Below are positions 2,211 through 17,630 of a DNA stretch of 19,177 bases, piece after piece. The first letter of the stretch is position 1. The number at the start of each line of letters is the position of its first letter. The stretch is from Candidatus Hodarchaeota archaeon (GTDB taxonomy: Archaea; Asgardarchaeota; Heimdallarchaeia; Hodarchaeales; Hodarchaeaceae). The position numbers were made by a program, and so were the translations under genes. The stretch spans positions 1-19,177 of the forward strand of contig JAEOTC010000056.1 of the NCBI GenBank assembly GCA_016840035.1. The letters are read 5' to 3'. A model generated the notes under the pieces. That model was given only the letters and a program-made list of their open reading frames with translations, was not told where the DNA came from and searched no databases.

Positions 2211-2211
2211 C

Positions 2212-3636
2212 TTACTCCGCCTTTTTCTTTCTTCGATAAGTGATCCAGGTGGTTAAGCTTAGTGTCAAGATAATTATCCCTGCAAACGACGAGTCCTTAT
2301 CAGTTGTAGTTGGAAGCGTGCTGGTATCTGAGGTAGTGGTGGATGTTGATGTTATGGGGTCACTGATTTCATCGGCTTTAGGGAATTTACCCAGCCAAAA
2401 ATCACGGTATTCTGGACTACTGCCTCCATTTTCCACAGATGCCAGTGCTACTATGTCCATACTTGAGTCAGATCCCTCTATTAGAACCATATCAACGATT
2501 TTTTCTCCCCGAGTCACTTCCCCATAAGTAATGAATCCTAAGATGTCTCCGGTATCACTCACTCGCACAATGCACATATCACCTTTATCCTCGCTTCCAC
2601 TTATCGAACCATACGCTCCTCCGATATAGTACTCGCCTGAAGTACTTTGAAGACAAACGCTTGGGGTATCATAATTATTACTTCCAAAGGTTGTGTTCCA
2701 TTCCACATTTCCATTTGAATCACATTTTATTATCCAATAATCTTTTCCTATTCCGTATGTGTCTCCAAATGGGTAACACGTGAGCAAGAACCCGCCATCT
2801 GCAGTTTCTAGTATATTCCTCTCCCATGCCCCATACCAATCTGTACCATCATCATATGCTTGGTCCCAGACAATATTCCCATTTTCAGTAATTTTTATTA
2901 CCCATATCGAGAATGCGCTATTAGATTCGCTTGATTGCTTTGATAATCCACTCAATAGATAATTTCCATCATCTAAAGGAATTAAAGCGCTTGCCTGATC
3001 AGATCCTACTCTATGATATGTTTTATTCCATTCTTCGTTCCCATCTACGTCAGTTTTAATTAACCAATAATCCGTATTCCATGTTTCTCCAGGTAATGCA
3101 AATTCTGATTGAGTAGCTCCAGCCACCAGGAATCCTCCATCAGATGCTACTACAATTTGCGATCCGTAATCTGGCCCATCTTCTTTGCCATTATATGTTC
3201 GGTTCCATTCTTCTGTTCCATTTTCATCAATCTTGAGAATCCAGAGATCCCATGTGGAATACTCTGTGCCGAATCCGAACCCGTTTACTACATATCCTCC
3301 GTCAGATGTAGGAGCTACGCTTCGTATATGGCATTGAGGTTTTGTGGGATGGGAATAACTCTGATTCCACTCTTCTTTCCCCTCGGAATCGACTTTCAGT
3401 ATCCAAGAGGTTTGATCTGTACCCCCTATGAGATATGACCCTACAAGAATATACCCTCCATCCGAAGCACTCACTAATTGCATTGGTCTTTCCTCATTTG
3501 GAGTTTCATAAACTTCTTCCCATATAGGTGTGGCCTTTATATTCACATATCCACTATTAGAAGTTAATGCGATTACCATAAGGCTTAAACTACAGATAAA
3601 CATGCTTACCGTATATTTTCGTTTATTTTTCATCAA
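2212..3636 (-). CDS. Secreted beta-propeller repeat surface protein with C-terminal anchor
   Basis: Signal peptide. Repeats DGG[YF].V.G....D.W..K.D..G.EEWN.TY. T/S-rich linker, SSF motif, TM and RRKKK tail. GAGGTGA SD lies just upstream (ATG at 3633 or TTG at 3636). The 1-bp gap to the next gene suggests an operon with 474..2210. Confidence 0.85.
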   Translation of the reverse strand: MMKNKRKYTVSMFICSLSLMVIALTSNSGYVNIKATPIWEEVYETPNEERPMQLVSASDGGYILVGSYLIGGTDQTSWILKVDSEGKEEWNQSYSHPTKPQCHIRSVAPTSDGGYVVNGFGFGTEYSTWDLWILKIDENGTEEWNRTYNGKEDGPDYGSQIVVASDGGFLVAGATQSEFALPGETWNTDYWLIKTDVDGNEEWNKTYHRVGSDQASALIPLDDGNYLLSGLSKQSSESNSAFSIWVIKITENGNIVWDQAYDDGTDWYGAWERNILETADGGFLLTCYPFGDTYGIGKDYWIIKCDSNGNVEWNTTFGSNNYDTPSVCLQSTSGEYYIGGAYGSISGSEDKGDMCIVRVSDTGDILGFITYGEVTRGEKIVDMVLIEGSDSSMDIVALASVENGGSSPEYRDFWLGKFPKADEISDPITSTSTTTSDTSTLPTTTDKDSSFAGIIILTLSLTTWITYRRKKKAE

Positions 3637-3684: not shown

Positions 3685-3700
3685 TTTTTAAACGTTTCTG
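3685..3700 (-). promoter_or_regulatory. BRE-TATA promoter for the propeller operon
   Basis: Minus strand reads CAGAAAcgTTTAAAAA, about 50 bp upstream of the start codon. Confidence 0.65.
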
Positions 3701-3712
3701 CGCTTGTCTGGT

Positions 3713-3751
3713 GTTCTAACCCTTTGTACGATCTGTTCTGTCGATTAGAAC
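3713..3751. promoter_or_regulatory. Tandem palindromic operator boxes (GTTCT-N7-TGTAC and GTTCT-N7-AGAAC)
   Basis: Boxes at 3713-3729 and 3735-3751, 22 bp apart. The proximal edge (3713) is 21 bp from the first T of the TATA box (3692). Confidence 0.65.
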
Positions 3752-3916
3752 TAGGGCCTCCTTTTCCAATTTATGGGTTCTTTGACCTTTACCTTCTCCA
3801 AGGTAAATTTAGCGCTAATATTTAATCATAAAATTAATTTAACTAAAAATACTAGGGAATTAGGAGGCGATTTTAGGTTCAAATTATCATTTCTAGTATT
3901 AAAAATAATAGTATCG

Positions 3917-4483
3917 TTATGGTTTCATTTTCCAAATCTTTAATGATTCATACATGAAAACCATGGTTCCAAATACGAGAACAAACAGAAAAACCCAGTT
4001 ACTTGGATCAAGGATATATCTATCTCCTCGTGTTAACAGAAAACCCAGAAATACAATTAGACAGAGAATAAACACCCCCAAATAGATTGTAAAACGAGGA
4101 ATCACGTGATATCCGAGACGAAAATAGAACCCATAGATTCCTGATTTGATTTCTTCTTTTACATAATACTTCTCATTTTCCTCATTTTTGGCTACAATTC
4201 CCACAGAAATCAAATTATTAATATGATACGAGACGAGGCCTGGAGAGGATAATTTCAATCCCTTTTGTATTTCCCTGATCCCTGCAAAACCTTCTGGATG
4301 AGTTAGAAGAAACCAATAAATGTTGAGTGTGGTTCCTTGAAGGAGTTTCTCTAGTTTTTCTTTAGGCGGGTCTGGGTGCATGGTTTCTCTCACGTATTTA
4401 AGAGAGTAGGATTTTGAGAGTAGGGGGATTTTTCGTTTTAAACGAGAGAGATTGATATTCTCTAATTCTTTAAAACGATCCAT
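3917..4483 (-). CDS. Membrane-tethered winged-HTH transcriptional regulator (wHTH + 2 TM), copy 1
   Basis: LQGTTLNIYWFLLTH...GIREIQKGLKLSSPGLVSYHINNLISVGIVAK...KY is a wHTH pattern, followed by two C-terminal hydrophobic helices. The start overlaps the SBP stop (TAATG). Paralogous to 9913..10437 and 17112..17630. Confidence 0.85.
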   Translation of the reverse strand: MDRFKELENINLSRLKRKIPLLSKSYSLKYVRETMHPDPPKEKLEKLLQGTTLNIYWFLLTHPEGFAGIREIQKGLKLSSPGLVSYHINNLISVGIVAKNEENEKYYVKEEIKSGIYGFYFRLGYHVIPRFTIYLGVFILCLIVFLGFLLTRGDRYILDPSNWVFLFVLVFGTMVFMYESLKIWKMKP

Positions 4484-6678
4484 TATTTTAGAATCCTCCC
4501 TCTAATATACTTTGCCTTCCTATAATTATAGATGACTATTGAAACCGCACAAACCACCAACCCACCAATCGCTATTGCGAAGAATGGGACCAATTTGTAC
4601 GTTTTGAGAAAATTTGGGATATTAAACTGGATTAAATTCCTCTTACCACTTAATTCCACTTCTAAATAGCGAAATGTCGAATTGCTAGCTTGAATTTTAA
4701 GCTCCTCCCATTCTCCCCTTTCCTCATTATAAAGAAAGAGAGCTAACTGATCATGAGGAATTTCATTGACTTCTTCAATATCATAATAGCATCTAAGCAG
4801 ATAGTTCTTATTTTCTTGATCACTTGTTGCTAATATGAACTTACCGTCTTCAATTTCAGAAGGTAGAAAGACCTTTAATTCCTTACTCATGGTTATATTC
4901 ACGTGATACTTCTGTTCCTGAAGAGGAGTTAGGACACAATCTGCCCATGGAAAATAAATGGGGTAGTCCGTAACCTCTATGTTATTATATTGGAACTTTT
5001 CAGGGTAAAGACTCTGTTTATGACTATTTGAAGCTTCTACTTGCTGTTGACTTAGTTTGAAGTTTCCTAATAGCTGATTATCTTGAGTGGAATAATTAAA
5101 GTAAATTTGTTCTATTGTATTCACGAATACAAATGGATTTAAGTCTTTGATTAGTGCATAAATATTCTTATTGAAAGTTAAATAGATATACGGGGCTTTT
5201 TGTTGAATTACTGGTTGAACTCGATAATAAAAATATTCTCGTTCTTGTCGTACGGGTGTTTTGGCTCCCTTTAATACTAATTCGTCAATAAGCGGTTCTT
5301 CAAATCCACCTGTATTAAAAGGGCTTGAAGAATGCAGATATAATCGAGTTAAGTCTGGATCATTGTACGAACTTGATCCAAAGAGAATAAGATCGTAGTC
5401 TCCCTCCCTCCAATATTCAGCCCAGTCGCTAGGGATGTTGGGTGGTGCCCAAATTCCTATTGCTTCTAAATATTCTTCAATAATCTCTGGGTGACGACTT
5501 TCGTCTCCTACTAAATTGAGAGCAAAGCGAAAGTTGTCTTTCCCACGTAGATAACCCGCCTTATCCAATAACTCATTTGCTAATGCCACATCAAACGGAT
5601 ACCCTGTCACCGACTGATTATAATATGGAACGTCTGGAGGGATTAAATTCGTCATTGGAATTGAAAAATCACTCCAGTTCATCTGATTTATGTATTCTTG
5701 CCTATCAATGGCATAATTAATGGCTAGTCGGACTCTGGGATCACTTAAATATTGATTATTGTGGTTAATATACATGAGTTCAAACCGAGTCATTTTTTCG
5801 CTAATATACACCTCCCAATTGATGCTATTTAACAACTGTTCCTCGATAGTGTTGTGCATAAAAACCATATCGACTGTTTGATCCCTAATCTCGTCAGCAA
5901 ATTCTTCCTGAGCAAGATAATGAATTTGTTCAAAAGGAGCCAATCCTTGATGGTAATTATTGAATCTAGTAAATGTAAAATTTTGAAAATTATCATTGTA
6001 AGTTGAGGAAGTTAATTCATATGGACCTGTGCCAATGGGATGTGAAATATTTGGTCCAATAAAGCTAGTTGGGGCTGCTATGTGCAGATATGCACACTCA
6101 TGAATAAAAGCAGCAAACGGGTCAGTTAAATGGACGGTAACTTGAAATTCGTTTTCTATTTCGACAAAATCAAAAGGTATTGTGTGAAAACTAATATATG
6201 GTGCTGGTTTGACATAGGCGGAATGAGTGGGATTAATCAGTCGATCATAATTCCATTTTACTGTACTCGCATTAAACTTTGACCCATCATGAAAAATAAT
6301 ATCATCCCGGAGATAAAATGTCCAGTGTTTACTGTCCTTGGATACGACCCATTGTTCAGCTAGCATAGGCTGTAATCCTCCAGAATAAGGATCATAATGC
6401 ACTAAAGCCTCATATACTAGTGAATTACGACGTAAATCAGCATTCCAACCTATTGCTATCGGATCAAAAAAAGGGTCATAAGGCCCGAGTATATATTTAG
6501 GTGTCATTACCCCAATTCGCAAAATGGAGGGAATTGAATCAACTGATTCTTGATTGAACAGAGGTATCTTTGACTTGGGTAAATCATTTGTCTCGAAATT
6601 ATCATAGGAGTTTCTGTTCGTAATCCATGAGGAAAATAGAATTAGGGACACGATTGTTACAATTAGCCTCATTTTCAA
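4483..6678 (-). CDS. Family-5 (peptide/nickel-type) solute-binding protein with an extra C-terminal beta-rich domain and single TM anchor; putative sensor 1
   Basis: SBP family-5 motifs: VYEALV, PMLAEQW, WTFYLRDDIIFHDGSKFNA, PIGTGPY, DPRVRLAINYAIDR, ANELLDKAGY. An extra domain of about 150 aa (LRCYYD...LALFLYNEERGEWEEL...YLEVEL) precedes the TM helix and basic tail. No permease or ATPase is adjacent. Confidence 0.85.
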   Translation of the reverse strand: MKMRLIVTIVSLILFSSWITNRNSYDNFETNDLPKSKIPLFNQESVDSIPSILRIGVMTPKYILGPYDPFFDPIAIGWNADLRRNSLVYEALVHYDPYSGGLQPMLAEQWVVSKDSKHWTFYLRDDIIFHDGSKFNASTVKWNYDRLINPTHSAYVKPAPYISFHTIPFDFVEIENEFQVTVHLTDPFAAFIHECAYLHIAAPTSFIGPNISHPIGTGPYELTSSTYNDNFQNFTFTRFNNYHQGLAPFEQIHYLAQEEFADEIRDQTVDMVFMHNTIEEQLLNSINWEVYISEKMTRFELMYINHNNQYLSDPRVRLAINYAIDRQEYINQMNWSDFSIPMTNLIPPDVPYYNQSVTGYPFDVALANELLDKAGYLRGKDNFRFALNLVGDESRHPEIIEEYLEAIGIWAPPNIPSDWAEYWREGDYDLILFGSSSYNDPDLTRLYLHSSSPFNTGGFEEPLIDELVLKGAKTPVRQEREYFYYRVQPVIQQKAPYIYLTFNKNIYALIKDLNPFVFVNTIEQIYFNYSTQDNQLLGNFKLSQQQVEASNSHKQSLYPEKFQYNNIEVTDYPIYFPWADCVLTPLQEQKYHVNITMSKELKVFLPSEIEDGKFILATSDQENKNYLLRCYYDIEEVNEIPHDQLALFLYNEERGEWEELKIQASNSTFRYLEVELSGKRNLIQFNIPNFLKTYKLVPFFAIAIGGLVVCAVSIVIYNYRKAKYIRGRILK

Positions 6679-6822
6679 GTTTCCAACTCCTCGAGATTTA
6701 TCTAGAATGGTTTATTATATTCAATCTTAGCTTTAATTCATTTTTAAACATGATAGAAATAATATGTTGGTTTATTGATAGCTTTGGAACGATTAAACTT
6801 ACTTATTCTCCCCAGAAAAGCA

Positions 6823-6867
6823 TATTTAAACCTTTCTAACCGTTCTAGATGTTCTAGATGTTAGAAC
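6823..6867 (-). promoter_or_regulatory. BRE-TATA promoter plus upstream GTTCT-N7-AGAAC operator for the SBP1-wHTH1 operon
   Basis: Minus strand reads AGAAAggTTTAAATA (TATA 6830-6823). The box GTTCT-AGATGTT-AGAAC is at 6851-6867, with its edge 21 bp from the TATA. Confidence 0.65.
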
Positions 6868-6972
6868 ATGCATTTTTCATTTCTTTTACAATCTCTATAA
6901 TCACATCCCTCTACCCCACGATCATCTCCAAGCTTCCATTTATTTTTTTTAAAAAGAACAAGCTCCAGTTTT

Positions 6973-7073
6973 TGAATAGCCTTTGCTCTTGCGATTTGTA
7001 TACAAAAAGAGCTTATTGTGAATGAGATTCTAAGCCGATTTTTTTCCTTCTGACGACAGTCTTCTGTAATTTC
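6973..7073. repeat. Dispersed direct repeat of about 100 bp, copy 2
   Basis: Homologous to 341-439 in the same orientation. Confidence 0.75.
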
Positions 7074-7178
7074 TTGTACTCTTGAAATCCTTGGATTCCT
7101 CCCATCCTTTCATTGTTTTTAGTTTTTCTGCCCTTCCTAATTGATCTTCTTCCCTTTCTTAGGGGTTTCATATCTGCC

Positions 7179-7222
7179 GTACAAATATTTGTACAACTAT
7201 TTTCCGAGGAAATGTTTAAATA
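7179..7222 (+). promoter_or_regulatory. Perfect palindrome GTACA-AATATT-TGTAC plus BRE-TATA for 7294..8202
   Basis: Box at 7179-7194, then GAGGAAAtgTTTAAATA with the TATA starting at 7215, 21 bp after the box edge. Confidence 0.7.
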
Positions 7223-7293
7223 ACCGTTTTTTCACCTTTTCTGCTTAGTTATCCAAGAATATTAACCCAACTTGGTTAAAGAGGTTTTTAAAA

Positions 7294-8202
7294 TTGATTG
7301 ATAACGGAATAAAGTTTTTTCGTGTATATTGCATCCTTCTTTTGGGTGTCATCTTTCTGTTTCCCCTTACGCAGGTGTCTGCTGAGGTGGTTTGGGTAGA
7401 GGATTGGGAAAACGGGTCTTCTGACTGGATTTTCCACAGTTATAACTATAGTGATGTTACTGGTTCCTGGTCTTTTCAACCTGATGCCATTGCTACACCT
7501 TCTGTGGCCAATGGAGTCTTTCAGACTAATTCTCCGAGTGATTTCTTTGGCGATTATTGGAGTGGCGCGATTCGAAATAGCACGACAGCGTATGGTTCCT
7601 GGAGTTTCGATGTGATTATTGGGTCAGGAGTCGCACATGAATCCTATCTTATTTTCTTCTTTGCTGTTGCTGGAATGCCTGATGATCTTACTGGATTATC
7701 TTTAGGTGATAACAATATTACAGGGTATTTCTTAGTAATTCAGTCAGGAGATAAAGGAGCTTTTGGTAATCCACTCATTCAGTTAGCGACCCTTAATTAC
7801 GTTTTGGCTGACTATCATCCTGCTACCCCGATTGAAGGAACACTTCATTTCCATATTACTCGGAATACCACAGGTTACTTTGAAGTCTTTTTTGATCCTA
7901 CGAATGACTCCTCGCCTCCTATTCTTACTGGTACTAATACTACTTTTACTACTTGTTCTAAATTTGCCTTTGGTTCCTGGGTTGGGGATTCGCAGATTGA
8001 TAATTTTTTTGTCTGGGATGAAGTCGTTCCCCCTCTAACTGATCTCCCTACAACTACTACGACTACTCCGATCACTACGACCACAGACAACCCAGAGTCG
8101 ACGACAACTACGACTGCTGCTGGGGGGCCTGGCTTTGAGCTACAAGTGTTAGTTCTTGGACTGTCCGCTCTATTCCTCTATCTTCGCAAACGAAGACCCT
8201 AG
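7294..8202 (+). CDS. Secreted surface protein, putative ConA/LamG-like beta-sandwich with Thr linker and PGF-CTERM-like anchor
   Basis: Signal peptide FPLTQVSA|EVVW. Family motifs AYGSWSFD, HITR...G.F.V.F and DS.IDN. Many N-x-S/T sequons. GGPGFE-TM-RKRRP C-terminus. The fold assignment is inference. Confidence 0.85.
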   Translation: MIDNGIKFFRVYCILLLGVIFLFPLTQVSAEVVWVEDWENGSSDWIFHSYNYSDVTGSWSFQPDAIATPSVANGVFQTNSPSDFFGDYWSGAIRNSTTAYGSWSFDVIIGSGVAHESYLIFFFAVAGMPDDLTGLSLGDNNITGYFLVIQSGDKGAFGNPLIQLATLNYVLADYHPATPIEGTLHFHITRNTTGYFEVFFDPTNDSSPPILTGTNTTFTTCSKFAFGSWVGDSQIDNFFVWDEVVPPLTDLPTTTTTTPITTTTDNPESTTTTTAAGGPGFELQVLVLGLSALFLYLRKRRP

Positions 8203-8224
8203 GTCTTCCCACTCCCATTTTTTT
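8192..8224 (+). terminator. Stop-overlapping hairpin plus T tract
   Basis: GAAGACC-CTA-GGTCTTC followed by a C/T tract. Confidence 0.5.
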
Positions 8225-8269
8225 GGATGATTGGGGATGAAATTTTACTCGTCTACTCTAATGAACAGG

Positions 8270-8289
8270 GTGTACAGTCCGCTGTACAC
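8270..8289. promoter_or_regulatory. Palindromic box GTACA-GTCCGC-TGTAC upstream of SBP2
   Basis: GTGTACAG-TCCG-CTGTACAC, core 8272-8287, with the same half-sites and N6 spacer as 7179 and 14750. The TATA box here is unclear (possibly ATATAGA at 8321). Confidence 0.6.
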
Positions 8290-8347
8290 CAAAACACCCA
8301 AAAACTGATCCAAGAACACGATATAGAGTCTCATTTACGAATAAACC

Positions 8348-9916
8348 ATGGTTTACAGCATGTTTCGGGAATTAAAAACATCTTCAAGGTGTATCCAGAG
8401 TTATTTTCTCTTTTTCTTGTTTTTTACTCTAGTTCTTGTTCCTGCCGTGAGGGGTCTCTCCTTAAATTCTAGGGGTGGTGCTGAGTCTTCCAGTATTTCA
8501 TTTGTTGTGATTGAACCTCTTGGTTCTCATCCAGCTTTTCAACAGCTCATTACTCAATTTAACCAGCACCCTGATTTTGACTTTACTGTTGAGGTTGAGT
8601 TACTTGAGGGAAGTAACAAGGATTGGTATGACCAATTAGTTCACCGATTTTTAGCTCAAGACAGTTCTTTTGATCTTGTCTCGACTGACATTATCTGGAT
8701 TCCTGATTTTGCCTTTGAAGAGTTTTTAACCCCTTTGGATGATATTCTGCCTCCTAAGGAGCAGAATTACTTTCTTACTCCCCCCATTGAAGCTTCCATT
8801 TACGATGGTCACATCTATGCGGTTCCTTGGTTTCATGCTTCTGGTCTTTTCTTTTATCGTACTGACATTCTCGAATATGCGGCTTCTATTGGTTTAATCC
8901 CTGCTAATCGTCCTCCCTCGACTTGGGATGAGTTATATGATTGGACACTTATCATGCTTGCCAACCAAACCCTTGTTGATCAGTTTAAGAGTTCTGATGG
9001 AGTTTTAGAGGGATTTATCTGGCAAGCTTCTTCTGGAGAAGATTTGATGTGTAATTTTTTGGAATTTCTTGGTGGGACGGGTATCTTCTCCTTTCTTTCT
9101 GAAGAACAATCTTTTGCTCTATTAGATTCTCCTCCAATCCAAGAAGTTCTTTCTTTCATGAAAAGCCTCATCACTAGCGGTATTTCTCCAGAGGAGGTTC
9201 TTACTTATTGGTCTGGTTCCAGTGGTGATATCTGGTTAGCAGGGAATGCGATTTTTCATCGCAATTGGCCATATTATTATTCATTCAGTTATGATTCTCC
9301 GAATTTACTGAACCTTACAACTTCGGAACCAGTTTTTGCTGTGACTACTATGCCTCATAAAGTGGGCACCTCTTCTCCTCGTACTTCCACCCTTGGTGGT
9401 TGGCAGCTTGGTCTTAATCGCTATTCCTTGTATCCTGAAAAGACCAAACAATTTATGACCTGGCTTACGTCATCCGACCAGCAGAAGGTTTTTCTTCTTT
9501 CTGGCGGTTTTCTTCCTTCGCGTCTTTCTCTTTATTCTGATCTGGATATTGCTTCTAGTGATTATGCTTATATTCAGGATTTTTTACCTATCTTTCAAAC
9601 CGCCATTTCGCGTCCCCGTCCGACTCATCCTCGCTATTCCGAAATGAGTGTGGTCCTTCAATCTCAAATCCATCAATTCCTTTCTGGGACCACTTCGTAT
9701 GAGCAATTCGCTCTCACCAGTAATGGGGAAATAGATCTTATCCTGAAGCAGTTTGAACTGGATTTATTGGCCAAATTGGAGGAATTGAGTCGCAAGACCT
9801 TTCATCTTCTTCCTCTCATCGCCTTAATCTCTGTTGGGGTAGGCCTTCCGGTTATCAGGGTAATCGTTCAGAATTTTCGCACTTATCGATCATTAAGGAG
9901 GCAACTCAAGCTATGA
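8348..9916 (+). CDS. Sugar-type (trehalose/maltose-binding-like) solute-binding protein with C-terminal TM anchor; putative sensor 2
   Basis: Motifs FDLVSTDIIWIPDFA, YDGHIYAVPWF..GLFFYRTDIL, PPSTWDEL, IFHRNWPY, STLGGWQLGLN and RPTHPRYSEMS are typical of cluster-B/D sugar SBPs. N-terminal signal and C-terminal TM. ATGA overlap with the next gene. The start may be ATG 8360. Confidence 0.85.
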   Translation: MVYSMFRELKTSSRCIQSYFLFFLFFTLVLVPAVRGLSLNSRGGAESSSISFVVIEPLGSHPAFQQLITQFNQHPDFDFTVEVELLEGSNKDWYDQLVHRFLAQDSSFDLVSTDIIWIPDFAFEEFLTPLDDILPPKEQNYFLTPPIEASIYDGHIYAVPWFHASGLFFYRTDILEYAASIGLIPANRPPSTWDELYDWTLIMLANQTLVDQFKSSDGVLEGFIWQASSGEDLMCNFLEFLGGTGIFSFLSEEQSFALLDSPPIQEVLSFMKSLITSGISPEEVLTYWSGSSGDIWLAGNAIFHRNWPYYYSFSYDSPNLLNLTTSEPVFAVTTMPHKVGTSSPRTSTLGGWQLGLNRYSLYPEKTKQFMTWLTSSDQQKVFLLSGGFLPSRLSLYSDLDIASSDYAYIQDFLPIFQTAISRPRPTHPRYSEMSVVLQSQIHQFLSGTTSYEQFALTSNGEIDLILKQFELDLLAKLEELSRKTFHLLPLIALISVGVGLPVIRVIVQNFRTYRSLRRQLKL

Positions 9917-10437
9917 AATCTATTTATACTCTTCTTCTTGAGCTCTTTGACTATTTTATTCCTTCGAGTCATACTCCGTTGGATCGCCCTATGAATGAAG
10001 ATTTAATTCGGGGGAAATCTCTCCAAATCTACTGGCACTTGCTGACCGCGGGTCCTAAAGGAGTTCGTGAAATTCAACGAGATCTTAATCTCACTTCTCC
10101 CTCTTCTGTCTCCTTTCAACTTGATCGATTGATGAAAGCGGGTATTGTTTCGAAAGATGAGAGTACTGACAAATATTTTGTGTCTGAAGAGGTTAAAACT
10201 GGTATCTTGGGTTTCTATGTCCGTTTCGGTTATCGCATGATTCCCCGTCTTACCCTGTTTCTTCTCTTTCAGTTGACTGGTATTGTCGTTTTTCTCATTC
10301 TTTTCCTTCTTGAGGGAGATCAATTTGCTTTAAATCCCTTTAACCTTCTTGCTTTCATCTATTTAATTCTTAGTAGTCTGTGGTTAATGTATGAGTCTAC
10401 TAAAATCAATAAACTAAAACCTAAAGAACTAAAATGA
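9913..10437 (+). CDS. Membrane-tethered winged-HTH transcriptional regulator (wHTH + 2 TM), copy 2
   Basis: IRGKSLQIYWHLLT..GVREIQRDLNLTSPSSVSFQLDRLMKAGIVSK..KY, linker GILGFYVRFGYRMIPR, then 2 TM. 4-nt overlap with SBP2. Confidence 0.85.
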   Translation: MKSIYTLLLELFDYFIPSSHTPLDRPMNEDLIRGKSLQIYWHLLTAGPKGVREIQRDLNLTSPSSVSFQLDRLMKAGIVSKDESTDKYFVSEEVKTGILGFYVRFGYRMIPRLTLFLLFQLTGIVVFLILFLLEGDQFALNPFNLLAFIYLILSSLWLMYESTKINKLKPKELK

Positions 10438-10476
10438 TAGAATAAACATAATTAAATGAAATGAGAGTATTACAAG

Positions 10477-11349
10477 ATGTTTGAGAATTTATTACTTAAC
10501 TGTCGTCTTCAGACCCTTCTTTTTTTGGGTATGATGCTTTTGTTTCCCCTCACGCAGGTATCTGCTGAGGTGGTTTGGGAAGAGGATTTTAATTCTGGAA
10601 TCTCAGAGAAATTGACATTCTTCGCATGGACCAGTGATAATGGCATTTTTCGTACAAATACTACCGCGCAACCCACTGTCGAAAATGCTGCTCTTCAAAT
10701 GCCTAATAATCGTGTTGCGAGTACTTGGAGTGGTGCTCAGCGGAACACGACTTTAGCTTATGGTTCCTGGAGTTTTGATTATACTGTAAAAGAAGGTGAA
10801 GATCATACTTCGTGTGATACGATTTTTTTCGTCAGTAATTTTCCATGGGATCTTGATGGACGTCCACTTCTTCCTAGCAACTTGAATGCATACTATATTG
10901 CGATTAAATCGGGGTCTACTGATAATTGCTGGCCGGATGAACCGGATCATGGATTAAACTTCGGACGAATATATCAAGGAAATGCTGTTAACTTAGTAAA
11001 ATATGTGTTTCCTGCTGACCTTGTGGGATCCTACAACATAGATATTTTAAGAAAACCGAATGGAGAATTTAATATCTATTGGGACTCTGAATTAATCATT
11101 AACAAAACTGACATTCTTGTTACATCAGCTGAAGTGTTTGTAGTTGGTTCTTGGACTGGAGATTCTACTTTTGACAACTTTGTTGTTGAAGAGTTTACCG
11201 ATACAACTTCAGATGGTTTACCAACTGATTCAGATAGTTCAACGAGTGCAGATGATCCATCGACTACTGATTCAAGCTCAGATTTTAATGTGGACTTATT
11301 ATTCCTAGCTCTCATTGCGGTTATGGTAGTTACCAAGAAACGTAAATAG
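10477..11349 (+). CDS. Secreted surface protein, divergent paralog of 7294..8202
   Basis: FPLTQVSAEVVWEEDF, AYGSWSFD, GSWTGDSTFDN. Acidic S/T linker, SDF motif, TM and KKRK tail. Confidence 0.85.
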   Translation: MFENLLLNCRLQTLLFLGMMLLFPLTQVSAEVVWEEDFNSGISEKLTFFAWTSDNGIFRTNTTAQPTVENAALQMPNNRVASTWSGAQRNTTLAYGSWSFDYTVKEGEDHTSCDTIFFVSNFPWDLDGRPLLPSNLNAYYIAIKSGSTDNCWPDEPDHGLNFGRIYQGNAVNLVKYVFPADLVGSYNIDILRKPNGEFNIYWDSELIINKTDILVTSAEVFVVGSWTGDSTFDNFVVEEFTDTTSDGLPTDSDSSTSADDPSTTDSSSDFNVDLLFLALIAVMVVTKKRK

Positions 11350-11357
11350 TTAAGCTT

Positions 11358-11404
11358 GAAGGAGTAACTTTGTAAATGGAATATTACTCCTTCGTCCTTT
11401 TTTT
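11358..11404 (+). terminator. Hairpin plus T tract; distant variant of the GAAAGAGT..ACTTCTTTC repeat
   Basis: GAAGGAGTAA-N16-TTACTCCTTC (11358-11393) followed by T7, just after the stop codon. Confidence 0.55.
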
Positions 11405-11574
11405 ATCTTGTTTTCTCATCAGGCACTTAAATGAGCAAGTATACACTCAACCTGAGCTGTTTAATGAGATTAGTTAATTTTCGTTGTTTCCTTGATTTTT
11501 TACACATCATTCTCTATTTAGAGAATGCTATCGCTCTTTAAGTCCCTGAGTTTCCTTCATACATTTCGTAAATT

Positions 11575-12462
11575 TTGAGGTTACTGAACATGTCTAACAA
11601 AGTACTTACTAACCTTCGCCTACCTTTCGTTCTGATTTTAGGTATCATGGTATTGTTTCCCCTCACGCAGGTCTCTGCCGAGGTGGTTTGGGAAGAGGAC
11701 TGGGAAAAACCCCCTTTTGATGAATGGATAATTCAAGCGTATTCTTATAGTGGTGATACTGGTTTTCAACCCGATGCTGCTGCCAATCCCCCCGTTGTTG
11801 CTGGTGTATTTGAAACCAATGCTCCTTCCGATATTTTTGGTGATTATTGGAGTGGTGCAGTCCGTAATAGTTCTGTGGCGTATGGTTCTTGGAGTTTTGA
11901 CTGGATAGTTGGTTCTGGGTCGGTTCATGAATCATATGTCAATGTCTTCTTCATTTTACCCGAGTACCAAAATAATCTAACAGGAAGAGATATGAGTGGT
12001 AATTATTCAGGGTATATGCTGAATCTTCAATCAGGTGTGAAAGGTCCTCATCCTCATAACTCGATTTATCTATCACGTTTTGATGGAGGAATAATTGGCA
12101 TGACAGCTTTTGATTCTGCTATCGAAGGATCTCATCACATTGAAGTGACTCGGTTCGAAGATGGAGAGTTCAATGTTTACTTCGACCATAATTCTACTCC
12201 AATCATTACTGGAATTGATACTACACACACGAACTCTACTAAATTTGCCTTTGGTGCGTGGATTGGCGATTCAGGTATAGATAATATTGTTGTTGCAGAT
12301 CTGACTGAAACAACGACTACTACAACTTCTACGACTACTACCGATGATACTACTACTGATTCTCCTACAACAACTGAGACTGGAAGTCCAAGCTTTGAAT
12401 TTCAGGTGATAGTACTTGGAGTGGCGTTCCTTTTCATCTTTTCCCGCAAGCGAAGACTCTAG
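11575..12462 (+). CDS. Secreted surface protein, close paralog of 7294..8202 (probable start ATG 11590)
   Basis: FPLTQVSAEVVWEEDWE, SDIFGDYWSGAVRNSSVAYGSWSFD, KFAFGAWIGDSGIDN. Thr linker and GSPSFE-TM-RKRRL C-terminus. Confidence 0.85.
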   Translation: MRLLNMSNKVLTNLRLPFVLILGIMVLFPLTQVSAEVVWEEDWEKPPFDEWIIQAYSYSGDTGFQPDAAANPPVVAGVFETNAPSDIFGDYWSGAVRNSSVAYGSWSFDWIVGSGSVHESYVNVFFILPEYQNNLTGRDMSGNYSGYMLNLQSGVKGPHPHNSIYLSRFDGGIIGMTAFDSAIEGSHHIEVTRFEDGEFNVYFDHNSTPIITGIDTTHTNSTKFAFGAWIGDSGIDNIVVADLTETTTTTTSTTTTDDTTTDSPTTTETGSPSFEFQVIVLGVAFLFIFSRKRRL

Positions 12463-12490
12463 GTCTTCTTTTTTACCTTTTTTTCCTTCC
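12452..12490 (+). terminator. Stop-overlapping hairpin plus T tracts
   Basis: GAAGAC-TCTAG-GTCTTC followed by long T runs. Confidence 0.55.
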
Positions 12491-12520
12491 TTATGGTTAT
12501 TATCCATTTTCGTGTAGTTA

Positions 12521-12559
12521 GAAAGAGTGACGCATTCCTGAGGGGGCGTTACTTCTTTC
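12521..12559. repeat. Intergenic hairpin repeat, copy A
   Basis: GAAAGAGTGACGC-ATTCCTGAGGGG-GCGTTACTTCTTTC, homologous to 17643-17680 and 18839-18878. Confidence 0.65.
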
Positions 12560-12837
12560 TTTCCTTCTGATTCAGTTTCTTGCCAATCGATTTTTTTCTT
12601 CAACTGGGGAGTATTACTCTCAATGGTTATGGTTTTCTCATCTCGCAAGAAGTGGGATTGCTGGTCCTAACAACTTATTTCATCAGTTTGTTTGCATTTG
12701 CATTTTATAAATTTAAATTTAAGAAACAGAAGGAGACATACCGTTGATGAATCTAAGAAATAAAATTCTAATTTCTTCTTTGTCCTATTTTGTTTCCACA
12801 TTGTCTGAGAAGTATCGTTCTTTGAGGTTTTAGGTCA

Positions 12838-13926
12838 TTATATTTTCCGTCTTTTCCGCGAGGAGATTATTAGTATACTAAGCACTAGTGGTACACTCAT
12901 CATTTCGAATCCTGGTATTCCACTTCCAGGTATAACGATTGTCAAGATCATTGTATCTAATACCGTGGTGGCATTTTTCAGTTGAATACTGATATCATAT
13001 GTTCCTGACTTAACCGATGCCTCTGTTCGAATTTTCAATGGTATTTCGTCTGTTTCATCCTTGAAAATATTCTTGATCAAGGACGAACCAAATGGTTCTA
13101 CTGTGATTCCACTTGGTTGAGTTCCGATGACTACAGTTCCATATCCTGTGGCTTCTCCTTCATTTTTTACCGTTATTGTGACGGTTGCTATTTCTTCTTT
13201 CCCTACTTCTTTGAGCATGCTTCTCTCTGTAAACTGTAGATTGGCTCGTTCTAGGGATGGTGGTTTGATTATTACCTCATTATTTACAGTAATGTTATCT
13301 AACCCGTGTCCTCCTTGTGAATCAAATCCAAAATAGTTTCCTACTGTATATTCAGTATCCATTGCTTCTATTATCAAAGTTCCATCCACGTACACATTAA
13401 AATGGCCATTTAGATCTCTTGTTATATCTATGTACAAATATTCAGGCAGTTTTCCAGTATATCCCCATACTCCCAATACTTTTGACGGAAATCCTTCTCG
13501 ACTTCCTAATATTAAGCTACTTGGGGTTACCATCCAACTTGAATCTGGAATTAATGTTAGATAATACCCTTTTTCTTCCCCAAGGTTTCCAAATGCTTCT
13601 GTACAGAAGTAAACGTACATATGTTCTCCGCTTATTAGTCCAGTTTGATTTATGTATACATCAAAGCTCCATGTGCCGTATGCAATATTACTGTCATGTT
13701 TTAGTCTGTGGTGATCTGTTTTTTCTCCTGCCGCAATTAACAATCCTGTTGTAGCGGAATAATTTCCGTCTATTATGGTCCATCCATCGTAATTCCCGTC
13801 CTCGAAATCATCACTCCAGATTTCTGTAGCAATACTTGGAGATGCTTGCAGAACGATTAAAATTAGGAAAATAAAACTTCCAGAAGTTAAATTTTTAGAT
13901 ATTTTTTCTTTTCTCATCTGATTCAT
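12838..13926 (-). CDS. Secreted surface protein: distant member of the same ConA/LamG-like family plus a C-terminal Ig-like domain and PGF-CTERM-like anchor
   Basis: EIWSDDFEDG, AYGTWSFD, IDITRDLNGHFNVYVDG and LDNITV match the family motifs. An Ig-like segment follows (VTITVKNEG...PSGITV...SGTYDISI), then IPGFE-TM-RKRRKI. GGTGA SD upstream. Confidence 0.85.
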   Translation of the reverse strand: MNQMRKEKISKNLTSGSFIFLILIVLQASPSIATEIWSDDFEDGNYDGWTIIDGNYSATTGLLIAAGEKTDHHRLKHDSNIAYGTWSFDVYINQTGLISGEHMYVYFCTEAFGNLGEEKGYYLTLIPDSSWMVTPSSLILGSREGFPSKVLGVWGYTGKLPEYLYIDITRDLNGHFNVYVDGTLIIEAMDTEYTVGNYFGFDSQGGHGLDNITVNNEVIIKPPSLERANLQFTERSMLKEVGKEEIATVTITVKNEGEATGYGTVVIGTQPSGITVEPFGSSLIKNIFKDETDEIPLKIRTEASVKSGTYDISIQLKNATTVLDTMILTIVIPGSGIPGFEMMSVPLVLSILIISSRKRRKI

Positions 13927-14096
13927 CTTTCACCCACCTAATCTGAGACCATGCTCATAGCGTTTTCCCCTATATTAACTTATAGTTCTATCTGTCTTCT
14001 CACCAAATTGGATAATTAACTCAAGAAAACACACATGACCGTATTAATAAAAGAAAATGAACTCCTTCCCTCATATTTAGGAATTTGTTGTGGCTT

Positions 14097-14285
14097 CTAC
14101 TGTTTTTTTCGCTTTCTCCGCTTTCTACTGAAGATTCCAACTCCGAAGACGATAATAAGTAGTTCTACAAAGGCAGTACTATCATCAGTTATGTTCGGTG
14201 ATGTTTCTGTAATTCTAGTTGTTGTTTTAGTCGTTGTGGTAGTTGTTATGGTAGTTGGTGGAGTAGTGGTAGTTGTCTCATTCAC
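14097..14285 (-). pseudogene. Orphan C-terminal fragment of a surface protein (Thr linker, TAF motif, TM, basic tail)
   Basis: Encodes only TTTTTPPTT...DDSTAFVELLIIVFGVGIFSRKRRKRKKQ. No signal peptide or globular domain. The upstream frame is closed by a stop about 25 codons earlier, with no ATG. Confidence 0.55.
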
Positions 14286-14360
14286 CTCTTTCTTAGCCGT
14301 ACTGAGTATTAAAAAGACAATATTTCGATAAAGTAGTGATGAGTCTCCCTCCTTTCCATT

Positions 14361-14483
14361 TTATTTCTTCTTTTTCACTTTTGGTCCGAGTGGGTACGAA
14401 TAAACGAGTCGATTATCGATTTCCTCTTTGGTTTTTTTCTTTTTTTTCTCGTCCTTGTTCTTTGGTTTTTGGTCTTCACTCAT
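14361..14483 (-). CDS. Small Lys-rich protein, copy 1 (40 aa: MSEDQKPKNKDEKKKKKTKEEIDNRLVYSYPLGPKVKKKK)
   Basis: Below the ORF-track cutoff. ATG preceded by a GTGAT SD-like motif. The paralog at 18566..18685 has an identical 15-aa core encoded with only synonymous differences. Confidence 0.75.
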   Translation of the reverse strand: MSEDQKPKNKDEKKKKKTKEEIDNRLVYSYPLGPKVKKKK

Positions 14484-14749
14484 GTTAATCACAGACTCTT
14501 CCTAGACTTTCTTGAGTTGTGTCTTGTATGTTTATTTATTAATTCAATGCTAAGGTTTGCAAAGTCATTTCTTTTAGACGTGTCTAACACTATTAAACTT
14601 TGAGGAACTAAAATTTTACTTCTTCTTTTTTCCAATTAAAATATATAGTCGTGTCTAATTCTTATCGGCCTGCCTATTATTTATTCAAGGAGGATTGAAG
14701 TATTTGCTTTAGTGTAAAAAGATCAAGTACTAAAACTCTGTTATTCGTT

Positions 14750-14813
14750 GTACAAACTTTTGTACAGTGAGTACAAGGTTTTATACTTCCCCTACCGTGG
14801 AAACCTTTAAGTA
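14750..14813 (+). promoter_or_regulatory. Tandem GTACA-N6-T[GA]TAC boxes plus BRE-TATA for SBP3-wHTH3
   Basis: GTACA-AACTTT-TGTAC at 14750-14765 and GTACA-AGGTTT-TATAC at 14771-14786 (21-bp period). GGAAAccTTTAAGTA has its TATA at 14806, 20 bp after the proximal box. Confidence 0.65.
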
Positions 14814-14889: not shown

Positions 14890-17055
14890 ATGAAACTCCG
14901 ATATTATCATGTTTTCTTACTAATCAGCATTTTTATCCTTACAGGTATCTTTATTCCTGTTTCAACCCATACAGTATCTTCATTCTCCTCAATTGTACAT
15001 ACTGATATTGTAAATACCCCTACTAATGGAGCAGAGGATTCTTCCTTACGCATCCTCTCCTATGGTTATCGTAATAGTGACCCTTTCCAAGAATTTAACG
15101 ATCTTGCCTCTTATTCTTATCTTATTACACTTGTATTTGATTCTCTTGTTCATTATTCTTTTGAAACGAATGAAATAATCCCCTCTCTTGCCAGATCTTG
15201 GCTTGTGAGTTTAGATAGCCGTCACTGGACTTTCTTCCTTCGGCAAGATGTTTTATTTCATGATGGTTCTGAATTTAACGCTTCAGCTGTCAAATTTTCT
15301 TATGATCGACTTATTGATCCTTCCCATCCTGCTTATATTGATCCGACACACAGAACACTTCTCTTTCAAGGCCCTCTTGAATCCGTGACTGTAGTAGACA
15401 CGTATATTGTGTCTTTTCACTTTTCTGAACCCTATGCTTCATTTTTGTATACAGACGCAGCCACAATGAGTATATATTCTCCTAGAAGTTTTATAGGTTC
15501 GAATATTTCTACTCCTATTGGTACAGGTCCTTATGCATATGCGTTTCATCAATCCAGAGAAAATGATACATTGCTCCACCTTACAAGAAATCCAGATTAT
15601 CATTTAGGCTACCCTCCTTTTGAGAACGTTTCCTATCGGACTTTTAATGAGACAGAACAGAGTTGGTTTTCTTATGAAGAGGCAATACACAACCGAGAAG
15701 GAGACTTGGCAACTTACCCCATTTCTAGTCTTCCAGATACGGATGAGTATTGGGATCTTTCTCTTTCTTTTCATGGTATTGAGGTAGGTTACTTTAACCA
15801 TTCTAATCCCTATTTGTCCAATTCTTTAGTGCGTTCAGCCATCAACTATGGCATCGATAAGGTTGATTTCTGCACTACTTTTCCCAATAGTACTATTCGT
15901 TACTCTAGATCTTCTCTTAAGAGCATCATCCATTCTGATATCGATTTTCACGATTCAACTATTCCAGGATATCCCTTTGATCCGCAATACGCAAACTTCT
16001 TACTTGATGCAGCAGGTTATCCACGAAACACTGATGGATATCGTTTCAGTCTTCAGCTCTCGGGAGACGATTATAGATGGGATAAACTGATTTATATTCA
16101 GGATCAGCTCCGAGATATTGGAATCAATTCGACAATAGATATTTTGGACCATAATGATTTCTCAACGGGCCTGTTTCCTTTTGATCTTTATATAGTGGGG
16201 TGGGGTGGACTGATGGATCCAAGTTATGTCTGGTGGTTTCTTCATTCAGATGGTGATATCAATGTTGGGGGTTTTCATAATTCTACTATTGATCAACTCG
16301 TTCTAAATGGGCAATATACTCCTGTCGTACAAGAACGTGAGTATTACTACAAGAAACTCCAGTGGTTAGTACAAGATGCTGTACCTTACTTATTACTGAG
16401 TGAGGGATATAAACCCTACATAAGGGCTACTTCTGTTTCATCATTGGTTAAAATGAATATTATTGGGAAATTTGCATTTAATTTTCCAACTGTCCAAGAT
16501 CCTCTATTTTCTCTCTCCGAAATTCCTCTTTCTGTCAACCCTCTCTATTGTCCACAAGCAGACATTGTGATCTCTCCCGAATCAGTTATTCACGATTCTT
16601 ATGTTAATCTCGATTTTTCAACTGATTCATCTCAGTTCTTCCCAGATCAAATAGGGGCGGGAAAATTTTACCAGCTTTCGAATGATGATCAGGAACCAGT
16701 GGAGTATTCTCTCCGTTTCTATTATGATGAAAGCGATTTTAATGAGAGTATTGATCCTGAGTCGCTAGCTCTCTTTGTTTGGAACCCAGTTCAACAATCT
16801 TGGGATGAACTAGAGTTAATTTCTGTAGATAATGATTTTCGCTATCTTGAGGTTCAGTTAACTCTTTCTACTGATCCTCTCATTCTTGCTTTTGGCGTAA
16901 GAAAGGTGTTTTTGGAGGAAGTTATTCGCTCCTTTAAACTTCTTTTTCCTTATCTTATATTACTGGGGGGAATTATTTCATTTGGTGCTGCAATTATCTT
17001 ACTTAATAGAATGTTCTTGAAAAATCTTCAGGAGGAGTTTTTATCACAATTATAA
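14890..17055 (+). CDS. Family-5 solute-binding protein with an extra C-terminal domain and single TM anchor; putative sensor 3 (paralog of 4483..6678)
   Basis: VFDSLVHY, PSLARSW, WTFFLRQDVLFHDGSEFNA, PIGTGPY, VRSAINYGIDK, ANFLLDAAGY and TPVVQEREYYY. Same extra domain as SBP1 (LRFYYDE...LALFVWNP...WDEL...FRYLEVQL), followed by a TM helix. Confidence 0.85.
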   Translation: MKLRYYHVFLLISIFILTGIFIPVSTHTVSSFSSIVHTDIVNTPTNGAEDSSLRILSYGYRNSDPFQEFNDLASYSYLITLVFDSLVHYSFETNEIIPSLARSWLVSLDSRHWTFFLRQDVLFHDGSEFNASAVKFSYDRLIDPSHPAYIDPTHRTLLFQGPLESVTVVDTYIVSFHFSEPYASFLYTDAATMSIYSPRSFIGSNISTPIGTGPYAYAFHQSRENDTLLHLTRNPDYHLGYPPFENVSYRTFNETEQSWFSYEEAIHNREGDLATYPISSLPDTDEYWDLSLSFHGIEVGYFNHSNPYLSNSLVRSAINYGIDKVDFCTTFPNSTIRYSRSSLKSIIHSDIDFHDSTIPGYPFDPQYANFLLDAAGYPRNTDGYRFSLQLSGDDYRWDKLIYIQDQLRDIGINSTIDILDHNDFSTGLFPFDLYIVGWGGLMDPSYVWWFLHSDGDINVGGFHNSTIDQLVLNGQYTPVVQEREYYYKKLQWLVQDAVPYLLLSEGYKPYIRATSVSSLVKMNIIGKFAFNFPTVQDPLFSLSEIPLSVNPLYCPQADIVISPESVIHDSYVNLDFSTDSSQFFPDQIGAGKFYQLSNDDQEPVEYSLRFYYDESDFNESIDPESLALFVWNPVQQSWDELELISVDNDFRYLEVQLTLSTDPLILAFGVRKVFLEEVIRSFKLLFPYLILLGGIISFGAAIILLNRMFLKNLQEEFLSQL

Positions 17056-17111: not shown

Positions 17112-17630
17112 ATGACTGAACGAAAATCGCTTGTTTCTCGGTTTTTTTCTACCCTTCGTCTTCGTATTAAATCGATTGGTATATCCCAGACTCCCATCGA
17201 CAAAGAAATTTTACAGGGAAAAACTATTCAAGTTTACTGGTTCCTTCTTACTCATGAAGATGCTAGCATTCGTGAAATTCAGCGTGCTTTACATTATGCG
17301 TCACCAGGGACTGTTACTTATCAACTTTCTAAGTTAGAAACAGCTGGTGTTGTGACTAAAGATCTTGAAAATGATAAGTATCGGATCAAATCAGAAATTA
17401 AATCAGGAATCTTGGGTTTTTATGTCCGGATTGGTTATCGAATGATTCCTCGGTTTTCTTTATACCTTATTTTGTTCCTTTTTGGGATTATTTGCTTCGC
17501 TTTTGTGGCAATTGATCGTGGTGACACCTTTATTTCGGATCCTTTCAATTGGATCATCCTATTTATTTTGATCTCGGGTATTTTTGCCTTTATCTTTGAA
17601 TCCATCCGTATTTGGAGAATGAGACCATAG
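17112..17630 (+). CDS. Membrane-tethered winged-HTH transcriptional regulator (wHTH + 2 TM), copy 3
   Basis: LQGKTIQVYWFLLTH..SIREIQRALHYASPGTVTYQLSKLETAGVVTK..KY, linker EIKSGILGFYVRIGYRMIPRF, then 2 TM. Lies 56 bp after SBP3. Confidence 0.85.
   Translation: MTERKSLVSRFFSTLRLRIKSIGISQTPIDKEILQGKTIQVYWFLLTHEDASIREIQRALHYASPGTVTYQLSKLETAGVVTKDLENDKYRIKSEIKSGILGFYVRIGYRMIPRFSLYLILFLFGIICFAFVAIDRGDTFISDPFNWIILFILISGIFAFIFESIRIWRMRP

Follow-up and report, generated by a model that had tools for sequence, protein, structure and literature searches.

Membrane-bound regulators of transcription are already known in Archaea, namely ArnR and ArnR1 as well as arCOG00381. In Sulfolobus acidocaldarius, ArnR and ArnR1, membrane-bound one-component activators of the archaellum promoter, combine a helix-turn-helix (HTH) domain with two C-terminal transmembrane (TM) helices (PMC6396743). 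The ArnR boxes are two 15-bp inverted repeats, TCGAC-N5-GTCGA, situated between -43 and -84, and both of them are needed for binding and for activation (PMC6396743). EarA binds repeated sites (TACATA repeats) upstream of the B recognition element and TATA box (BRE/TATA), and is thought to aid the recruitment of TBP (TATA-binding protein) as well as TFB (transcription factor B). Ptr2, a regulator of the Lrp type, also binds repeated sites upstream of BRE/TATA, and a role in TBP/TFB recruitment is assumed for it as well. In this study, we have analysed a stretch of 19,177 bp from a Candidatus Hodarchaeota archaeon (the entire contig C282, hereafter the window, which represents 0.45% of a draft genome of 4.3 Mb and 36% GC), where short palindromes precede operons that encode a solute-binding protein (SBP) and a small protein made of a winged HTH and two TM helices (wHTH-2TM). 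ArnR of Sulfolobus is the closest known system, and our search of the literature returned no description of this regulator family or of regulator-operator pairs in Asgard archaea.

The window contains three gene pairs in which, according to Pfam, an SBP gene (SBP_bac_5, SBP_bac_1 and SBP_bac_5, respectively) is followed by a gene for a protein of 172-188 amino acids that has a hydrophobic C-terminus and, weakly matched, a wHTH of the ArsR/MarR/TrmB type. With a probability that we set at about 0.65, the palindromes (GTWC-N8/9-GWAC, 16-17 bp) would be the operators of these membrane-anchored, ArsR-like wHTH proteins encoded in the same operons, a reading drawn from sequence comparison.

Helix-phased palindromes ahead of archaeal core promoters

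An exact search of the window returned GTTCT-N7-AGAAC at 3735-3751 and 6851-6867 (expected number 0.03; none of 200 shuffles reached two) and GTACA-N6-TGTAC at 7179-7194, 8272-8287, 14750-14765 and 16369-16384 (expected number 0.01). Every palindrome and variant listed in a preliminary description of this DNA was recovered, together with a fourth N6 copy, at 16369, that it had missed. Each exact pattern occurs seven times in the 4.3 Mb of the genome, two of the seven N7 copies and four of the seven N6 copies falling in the window; the fifth genomic copy of the N6 pattern (C273:7280) belongs to a paralogous promoter. The boxes and core elements of four promoters are as follows.

6851..6867, minus strand: 17-bp box GTTCTAGATGTTAGAAC, arms GTTCTA/TAGAAC, putative proximal operator of the SBP1-wH1 operon
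6823..6837, minus strand: BRE/TATA of the SBP1 operon, AGAAAGG TTTAAATA, with TATA at 6823-6830
3713..3729, minus strand: propeller-operon promoter, 17-bp proximal box GTTCTAACCCTTTGTAC, a variant
3735..3751, minus strand: distal 17-bp box GTTCTGTCGATTAGAAC of the propeller operon, its start 22 bp from the proximal start
3685..3699, minus strand: BRE/TATA of the propeller operon, AGAAACG TTTAAAAA, with TATA at 3685-3692
7179..7194, plus strand: GTACAAATATTTGTAC, a perfect palindrome of 16 bp ahead of surface gene 7294
7208..7222, plus strand: BRE/TATA of gene 7294, GGAAATG TTTAAATA, with TATA at 7215-7222
14750..14765, plus strand: SBP3-wH3 operon, distal 16-bp box GTACAAACTTTTGTAC
14771..14786, plus strand: proximal degenerate box GTACAAGGTTTTATAC of the SBP3 operon, 21 bp from the distal box
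14799..14813, plus strand: BRE/TATA of the SBP3 operon, GGAAACC TTTAAGTA, with TATA at 14806-14813

The proximal box is separated from the TATA by 20 intervening nt at 6851, 3713 and 7179 and by 19 nt at 14771, equivalent to the 21, 21, 21 and 20 bp to the first T that had been described. The tandem spacing of 21-22 bp was confirmed in the same way, with box starts 22 bp apart at 3713/3735 and 21 bp apart at 14750/14771. A purine-rich GAAAnn BRE-like element precedes each of the four TATAs. Both elements were assigned from sequence alone; archaeal BRE/TATA logic applies because the genome encodes TBP (on C112, two PF00352 repeats above the cut-off) and because the wHTH-2TM homologues derive from metagenome-assembled genomes (MAGs) of Heimdallarchaeota/Hodarchaeales. 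The earlier claim of promoter-linked, helix-phased boxes thus stands at four promoters. Two other palindromes are exceptions: 8272 lacks a phased TATA and 16369 lies inside the SBP3 reading frame. These promoter-linked, helix-phased boxes support the local regulon that had been suggested, composed of SBP-wHTH operons with propeller and surface genes.

The same arrangement recurs across the genus, of whose 21 genomes 20 encode the wHTH-2TM family (40 loci retrieved). An exact GTWC-N8/9-GWAC lies at most 300 nt upstream of the operon start in 33 of the 42 wHTH-2TM operons with enough upstream sequence (20 genomes), and most of the remaining operons have versions with one mismatch. As a control, 43 of 3212 upstream windows of 250 nt in the genome studied here (1.3%) hold this pattern, and its density there is equal in genic and intergenic DNA. 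The distances from a box to the next TATA-like element form a 21-bp ladder, as 34 of 39 fall at 19-20 nt (11), 39-43 nt (17) or 61-64 nt (6). In the groups where the partner is a DUF3160 protein or a protein of about 230 amino acids, three or four boxes follow one another with a 21-bp period right up to the TATA.

The boxes are also conserved. Six promoters from four genomes (four of SBP genes, two of propeller genes) are on average 34% identical when aligned, yet their box ends and GAAA..TTTAAA do not vary; in alignment A3, the BRE/TATA columns of the SBP1 operon are invariant. The 6851 box is kept as GTTCAAGATGTTAGAAC, GTTCTACGTGTTAGAAC and GTTCTATGAGTTAGAAC in L029, L024 and L026, with diverged flanks, and the right half of the 3713 box, GTTAGAAC, aligns with the boxes of SBP promoters. 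In the SBP3 promoter, GTACAAA(C/G)TTTTGTAC is maintained in four genomes, and the 14750 box varies at one central base only among three orthologous promoters. We also observed that GTTCTAGAT is directly repeated twice ahead of GTTAGAAC (6842-6867, the overlapping direct repeat being at 6842-6850), so that the SBP1 operator overlaps a shifted second copy of its own left half.

The extent of the regulons appears limited. Elements of the type GAAAnnTTTAAA, more specific than TTTAAA, lie 25-75 nt before many genes, and a box is present at only 8 of the 50 intergenic promoter-like sites of this type in the genome, all eight being at regulator cassettes or at propeller or surface genes. The genome-wide motif check called for in the preliminary description gave rare exact patterns concentrated in the window, and no global regulon. 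A degenerate tandem pattern showed no excess over its reversed control in three closed genomes (21 vs 31, 10 vs 18 and 7 vs 11). Because the exact patterns are rare and the degenerate one is no commoner than its control, a genome-wide regulon was rejected and the regulons are best seen as small and local.

Two palindromes of the window stand apart from this scheme.

8272..8287, plus strand: GTACAGTCCGCTGTAC, between gene 7294 and SBP2
16369..16384, plus strand: GTACAAGATGCTGTAC, within the SBP3 open reading frame (ORF), codons V-Q-D-A-V-P

No TATA-like element lies at the phased distance from the 8272 box. On the plus strand, positions 8264-8296 can form a hairpin, GGTGTACAG-TCCG-CTGTACACC, with a 9-bp stem (-14.4 kcal/mol, z = -4.1), located 60 nt before the SBP2 start, and a T7 run (8219-8225) lies just past the stop of gene 7294. 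This palindrome may be an RNA element and not an operator. The 16369 copy has an ATATAAA 21 nt downstream and was considered as an internal promoter. This was rejected, as none of the orthologues has the box, which is a product of V-Q-x-x-V-P codons: homologous codons in L028 and L033 also yield GTWC...GTAC. It looks codon-driven because the SBP3 orthologues are without it, and it is probably coincidental.

The 7179 promoter has paralogues at C273:7280 and C10:7615, and its half-site GTACAAA is of the wH3 type. A divergent ORF for a Lys/Arg-rich peptide of 52 amino acids (7013-7171, minus strand) has its ATG 8 nt from the 7179 box, and further copies of the segment of about 250 nt that contains it precede boxed promoters on C273, on C10 and in L033. 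Gene 7294 and this small ORF could both be served by the TTTAAATA at 7215.

A minimal membrane-anchored regulator and its clade-specific boxes

The genes concerned are the following.

4483..6678, minus strand: SBP1 (SBP_bac_5), likely start at the ATG at 6672
3917..4483, minus strand: wH1, ArsR-like wHTH with two C-terminal TM helices, one-base overlap with the SBP1 gene
8348..9916, plus strand: SBP2 (SBP_bac_1)
9913..10437, plus strand: wH2, wHTH-2TM paralogue, overlapping the SBP2 stop codon
14890..17055, plus strand: SBP3 (SBP_bac_5)
17112..17630, plus strand: wH3, wHTH-2TM paralogue
474..3636, minus strand: genes for two beta-propeller proteins, at 2212-3636 and 474-2210, downstream of wH1
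7294..8202, plus strand: secreted surface protein gene 7294, driven by the 7179 promoter

Further secreted surface proteins are encoded in the window, in which a Pfam scan found no HTH genes besides those for wHTH-2TM proteins, and to which no Rfam family matched. The genome encodes at least eight wHTH-2TM paralogues. In G000, the ends of C16 and C191 overlap inside a wHTH-2TM gene; the two contigs join there, because both ends carry the identical MKSDESVADELLKGKTMKIYWYLLSHGQAGIREIQ.

An AlphaFold2 (AF2) model of wH3 (pLDDT 79) has the order alpha1-alpha2-alpha3-alphaR-beta wing-alpha5 followed by two long helices; the wHTH spans residues 37-92, the recognition helix residues 65-77 and the TM helices residues 112-140 and 144-169, so that only about 15 residues (alpha5) lead from the wing to the first TM helix. 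The hydrophobic segments are conserved in the family alignment. The best Foldseek matches are CadC, HlyU and CzrA, which are dimeric ArsR/SmtB proteins (TM-score normalised to the target, 0.60-0.68). By sequence, wH2 passes the cut-offs of HTH_5 (23.1 bits vs 22) and LexA_DNA_bind (24.9 vs 23.7), while wH1 and wH3 stay under the cut-offs. The matches to HTH_5, HTH_20 and NF033788 (24 bits vs a cut-off of 55) are weak. A search of the PDB with the family profile yielded chance matches only, and Pfam and NCBIfam gave no match to HAMP. Since Arg residues precede the first TM helix, the tail behind the second is basic, and the 12-residue loop between them is acidic (with G137, D138 and P144 invariant), we predict a cytoplasmic N-terminus and DNA-binding domain pressed on the membrane, a hairpin of two TM helices and a short conserved outside loop.

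These proteins are easily the strongest candidates for binding the boxes. Across the genus, genes for SBP family 5, wHTH-2TM and beta-propeller proteins widely keep this order. Other regulator clades follow a DUF3160 protein or the protein of about 230 amino acids, and the boxes go with the regulator gene regardless of partner, co-occurring with it across four kinds of partner gene in 20 genomes. In L043, L037, L053 and six further loci, the partner is a DUF3160 protein of about 730 amino acids, and four tandem boxes reach the TATA. Among the regulon members, beta-propeller proteins of differing families recur, and in L022 (7372-10480, plus strand) two Kelch-repeat and FN3 proteins share a divergent boxed promoter beside an SBP3-type cassette. 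Two proteins of about 550 amino acids (L065:2764-4416 and L066:1950-3611) have a distant wHTH-TM-like N-terminal region; the rest of each matched no Pfam domain, and they may be fused forms of the module.

The boxes differ between regulator clades. At least seven operator variants, each specific to a clade, occur in the genus, so the two spacer specificities initially described were too few.

wH1 clade: 17-bp GTTCTA-N5-TAGAAC
wH3 clade: GTACAAACTTTTGTAC
remaining clades: GTACTAACGTTAGTAC; GTTCTAACGTTAGAAC; a hybrid, GTTCTAAAGTTAGTAC; GTACGAAATTTCGTAC; and GTTCAGCTATCTGAAC

A clade's variant recurs at non-homologous neighbouring promoters (L029, L021, L023, L027, L028, L039 and C28): in L029, an identical 17-mer precedes both the SBP gene and the propeller gene, and in L021 and L023 the wH3-type box appears again at a second promoter. 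The proposed match of copy 1 (wH1) with the N7 box agrees with our data, since wH1 pairs with the 17-bp GTTC box and orthologues keep this pairing. For copies 2 and 3, said to read the N6 box, we could retain copy 3, whose pairing with the 16-bp GTAC box is likewise kept in orthologues. Copy 2 is not assignable because it has no orthologous cassette, the 8272 palindrome lacks a phased TATA and folds into the hairpin described above, and the 7179 half-site belongs to the wH3 type; homologues of SBP2 in G015, G001 and G008 have neither an adjacent wHTH gene nor boxes, and so offer no cassette for footprinting.

In two sister clades of the protein tree, an A versus Y difference at the helix position equivalent to T69 of wH3 accompanies a T versus A difference at operator base 3 (GTTCTAACGTTAGAAC vs GTACTAACGTTAGTAC). 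More generally, GTAC accompanies T or Y at position 69 and GTTC accompanies A, whereas S is seen both with GTTC and with hybrids. This covariation between helix residue 69 and operator base 3 is suggestive.

Activation, repression and other explanations

Based on these results, the following mechanism can be proposed. A wHTH-2TM protein would bind its clade-specific palindrome as a dimer, at one to four boxes placed 21 bp (two helical turns) apart, the proximal edge being 20 nt from the TATA and the centre-to-centre distance about 32 bp (three turns). All dimers and the TBP/TFB complex would then lie on one face of the DNA, as a protein array in the plane of the membrane would need. If dimers in that plane can co-occupy same-face sites only, this would explain both the 21-bp period and the distance of about 32 bp. 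Binding would control the regulator's own operon, with its extracytoplasmic partner, and one or two neighbouring promoters of secreted beta-propeller or surface proteins. On the direction of control, the preliminary description spoke of autoregulating activators. Autoregulation follows from the operon structure: the regulator gene either overlaps the partner gene or lies close behind it, and binding at the operon promoter would thus act on the regulator's own gene. The activator role was argued from position, and the GAAAnnTTTAAA-type BRE/TATA, found at many other genes, gives no case for activation being needed. Activation nevertheless seems to us somewhat likelier than repression, because at SBP family 5 promoters the boxes (about -50 to -90) are clear of BRE, TATA and transcription start site (TSS), and because ArnR provides a precedent. 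More tentatively, and with less than even confidence, we propose that Hodarchaeales have an expanded set of kinase-free modules for transmembrane signalling, in which an extracytoplasmic binding protein (SBP, DUF3160 or another) would signal to an ArsR-like wHTH on a TM hairpin, phased dimer arrays would hold the promoters of genes for secreted proteins at the membrane, and paralogues would be insulated by a recognition code (residue 69 with base 3; dimer geometry with 16 vs 17 bp).

Several observations weigh against the operator reading or against parts of it. The Foldseek matches are weak (E about 5e-3), wH2 is without a demonstrable operator, and the genome-wide position profile of TTTAAA, computed with crude gene starts, is broad and does not confirm the TATA assignment. 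The covariation at residue 69 amounts to two or three phylogenetically independent contrasts, all in the same direction and too few to reach significance, and a C28 paralogue breaks the simple helix rule, because it has the Q-L recognition helix of wH2 and wH3 and yet a hybrid GTTC/GTAC operator. The survey counts overstate independence, as operator and regulator are inherited together in orthologous cassettes. BRE/TATA elements are good at the regulated promoters, which fits repression and activation alike, and in the DUF3160 and 230-amino-acid groups the last box abuts the TATA, a repressor-like position.

These last two points make repression a serious rival. The same proteins and boxes could form an autorepressor system, in which the tethered dimer array silences the operon until the partner signals release; we regard this as possible, if rather doubtful. 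The fold resembles that of typical bacterial ArsR/SmtB repressors, the near-consensus GAAAnnTTTAAA elements could give high basal strength, the TATA-proximal box of the DUF3160 and 230-amino-acid groups can even overlap BRE/TATA, and the 7179 box would fall at the start of the transcript of the divergent small ORF. At SBP family 5 promoters, however, the boxes are placed 20-60 nt ahead of the TATA, and BRE, TATA and TSS stay free, as with the activators ArnR and EarA. A quite different possibility is that another, soluble and global binder of GTWC-N8-GWAC controls the genes of secreted proteins, the wHTH-2TM proteins having a different target or role. The outer GTWC/GWAC tetramers common to all variants are compatible with such a factor, as are boxed promoters on C10, C176 and C273 with no regulator gene on the same short contig. 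We nonetheless judge it improbable, given that the inner bases and the spacing (16 vs 17 bp) differ and that these differences are kept by clade, that the wHTH-2TM gene is the only one invariably linked to the boxes across the four partner types, that the window revealed no other HTH gene, and that the background level of the degenerate tandem pattern leaves no room for a large regulon.

It is less probable still, and in our view very unlikely, that the palindromes lack an operator function, being either relics of promoter duplication or RNA hairpins (signals for termination or processing). Such an origin is suggested by the repeated segment around the 7179 promoter (C273, C10), by the stable fold of the 8272 palindrome and by the codon by-product at 16369. 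It does not account for boxes that are invariant between flanks of about 34% identity, in cassettes whose SBPs are only 30-35% identical, and strict 21-bp phasing is unexpected of relics. Lying upstream of the TATA, the boxes would also escape transcription, and their stems are weak (-5 to -7 kcal/mol) with no T-run; the hairpin or terminator reading was therefore rejected for the promoter boxes, with 8272 excepted.

Comparison with known systems

If operators of wHTH-2TM proteins, these boxes would supply predicted regulator-operator pairs with testable sequence rules in Hodarchaeales. The diverged paralogues would represent a natural series in which to study the evolution of operator specificity, and transcription factors confined to the membrane may obey a geometric rule, as suggested by the strict phasing at two turns.

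Part of this architecture can be found in other systems. With the ArsR/SmtB proteins (CadC, CzrA, HlyU, BigR), the family shares the fold of the AF2 model (alpha1-alpha2-alpha3-alphaR-beta-wing-alpha5) and palindromic operators that would fit a dimer. It differs by the absence of evident metal or thiol sensor sites, by the TM hairpin after alpha5, by scores under the family cut-offs (except HTH_5 on wH2), and by boxes that lie upstream of an archaeal BRE/TATA and not over a bacterial -35/-10 promoter. The ToxR-like regulators (ToxR/ToxS, CadC/LysP, TcpP/TcpH) offer a second parallel, as a membrane-anchored wHTH that binds promoter DNA directly and is modulated by a co-encoded membrane or periplasmic partner, with no kinase and with envelope targets, all of which is predicted here. 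Theirs is an OmpR-type wHTH with one TM helix and a periplasmic sensor domain, and their sites are direct repeats, whereas here the wHTH is of the ArsR type, with a two-TM hairpin, an outside loop of about 12 amino acids and inverted repeats. Ptr2 and EarA are soluble, belong to other families, use other motifs and offset weak core promoters, which are not evident here.

The likeness to ArnR, which we compared by its description, is greater. Both have an N-terminal HTH and two C-terminal TM helices (for wHTH-2TM proteins, in the AF2 model and the family alignment), tandem inverted-repeat boxes upstream of BRE/TATA, regulator paralogues and surface structures as targets. Importantly, there are also clear differences. 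In ArnR, which is under kinase control, HAMP and sensor domains separate the HTH from the TM helices, whereas wHTH-2TM proteins, of 150-190 amino acids, have almost no linker. They are, moreover, co-operonic with an extracytoplasmic SBP or DUF3160 protein, and occur in Asgard archaea as eight or more paralogues per genome, with diversified GTWC operators of 16 or 17 bp. What is new here is this minimal, ArsR-like, partner-coupled and multi-paralogue form with its diversified operators, which would extend membrane-bound one-component regulation, of which ArnR is the archaeal case, to minimal regulators whose partners are extracellular binding proteins.

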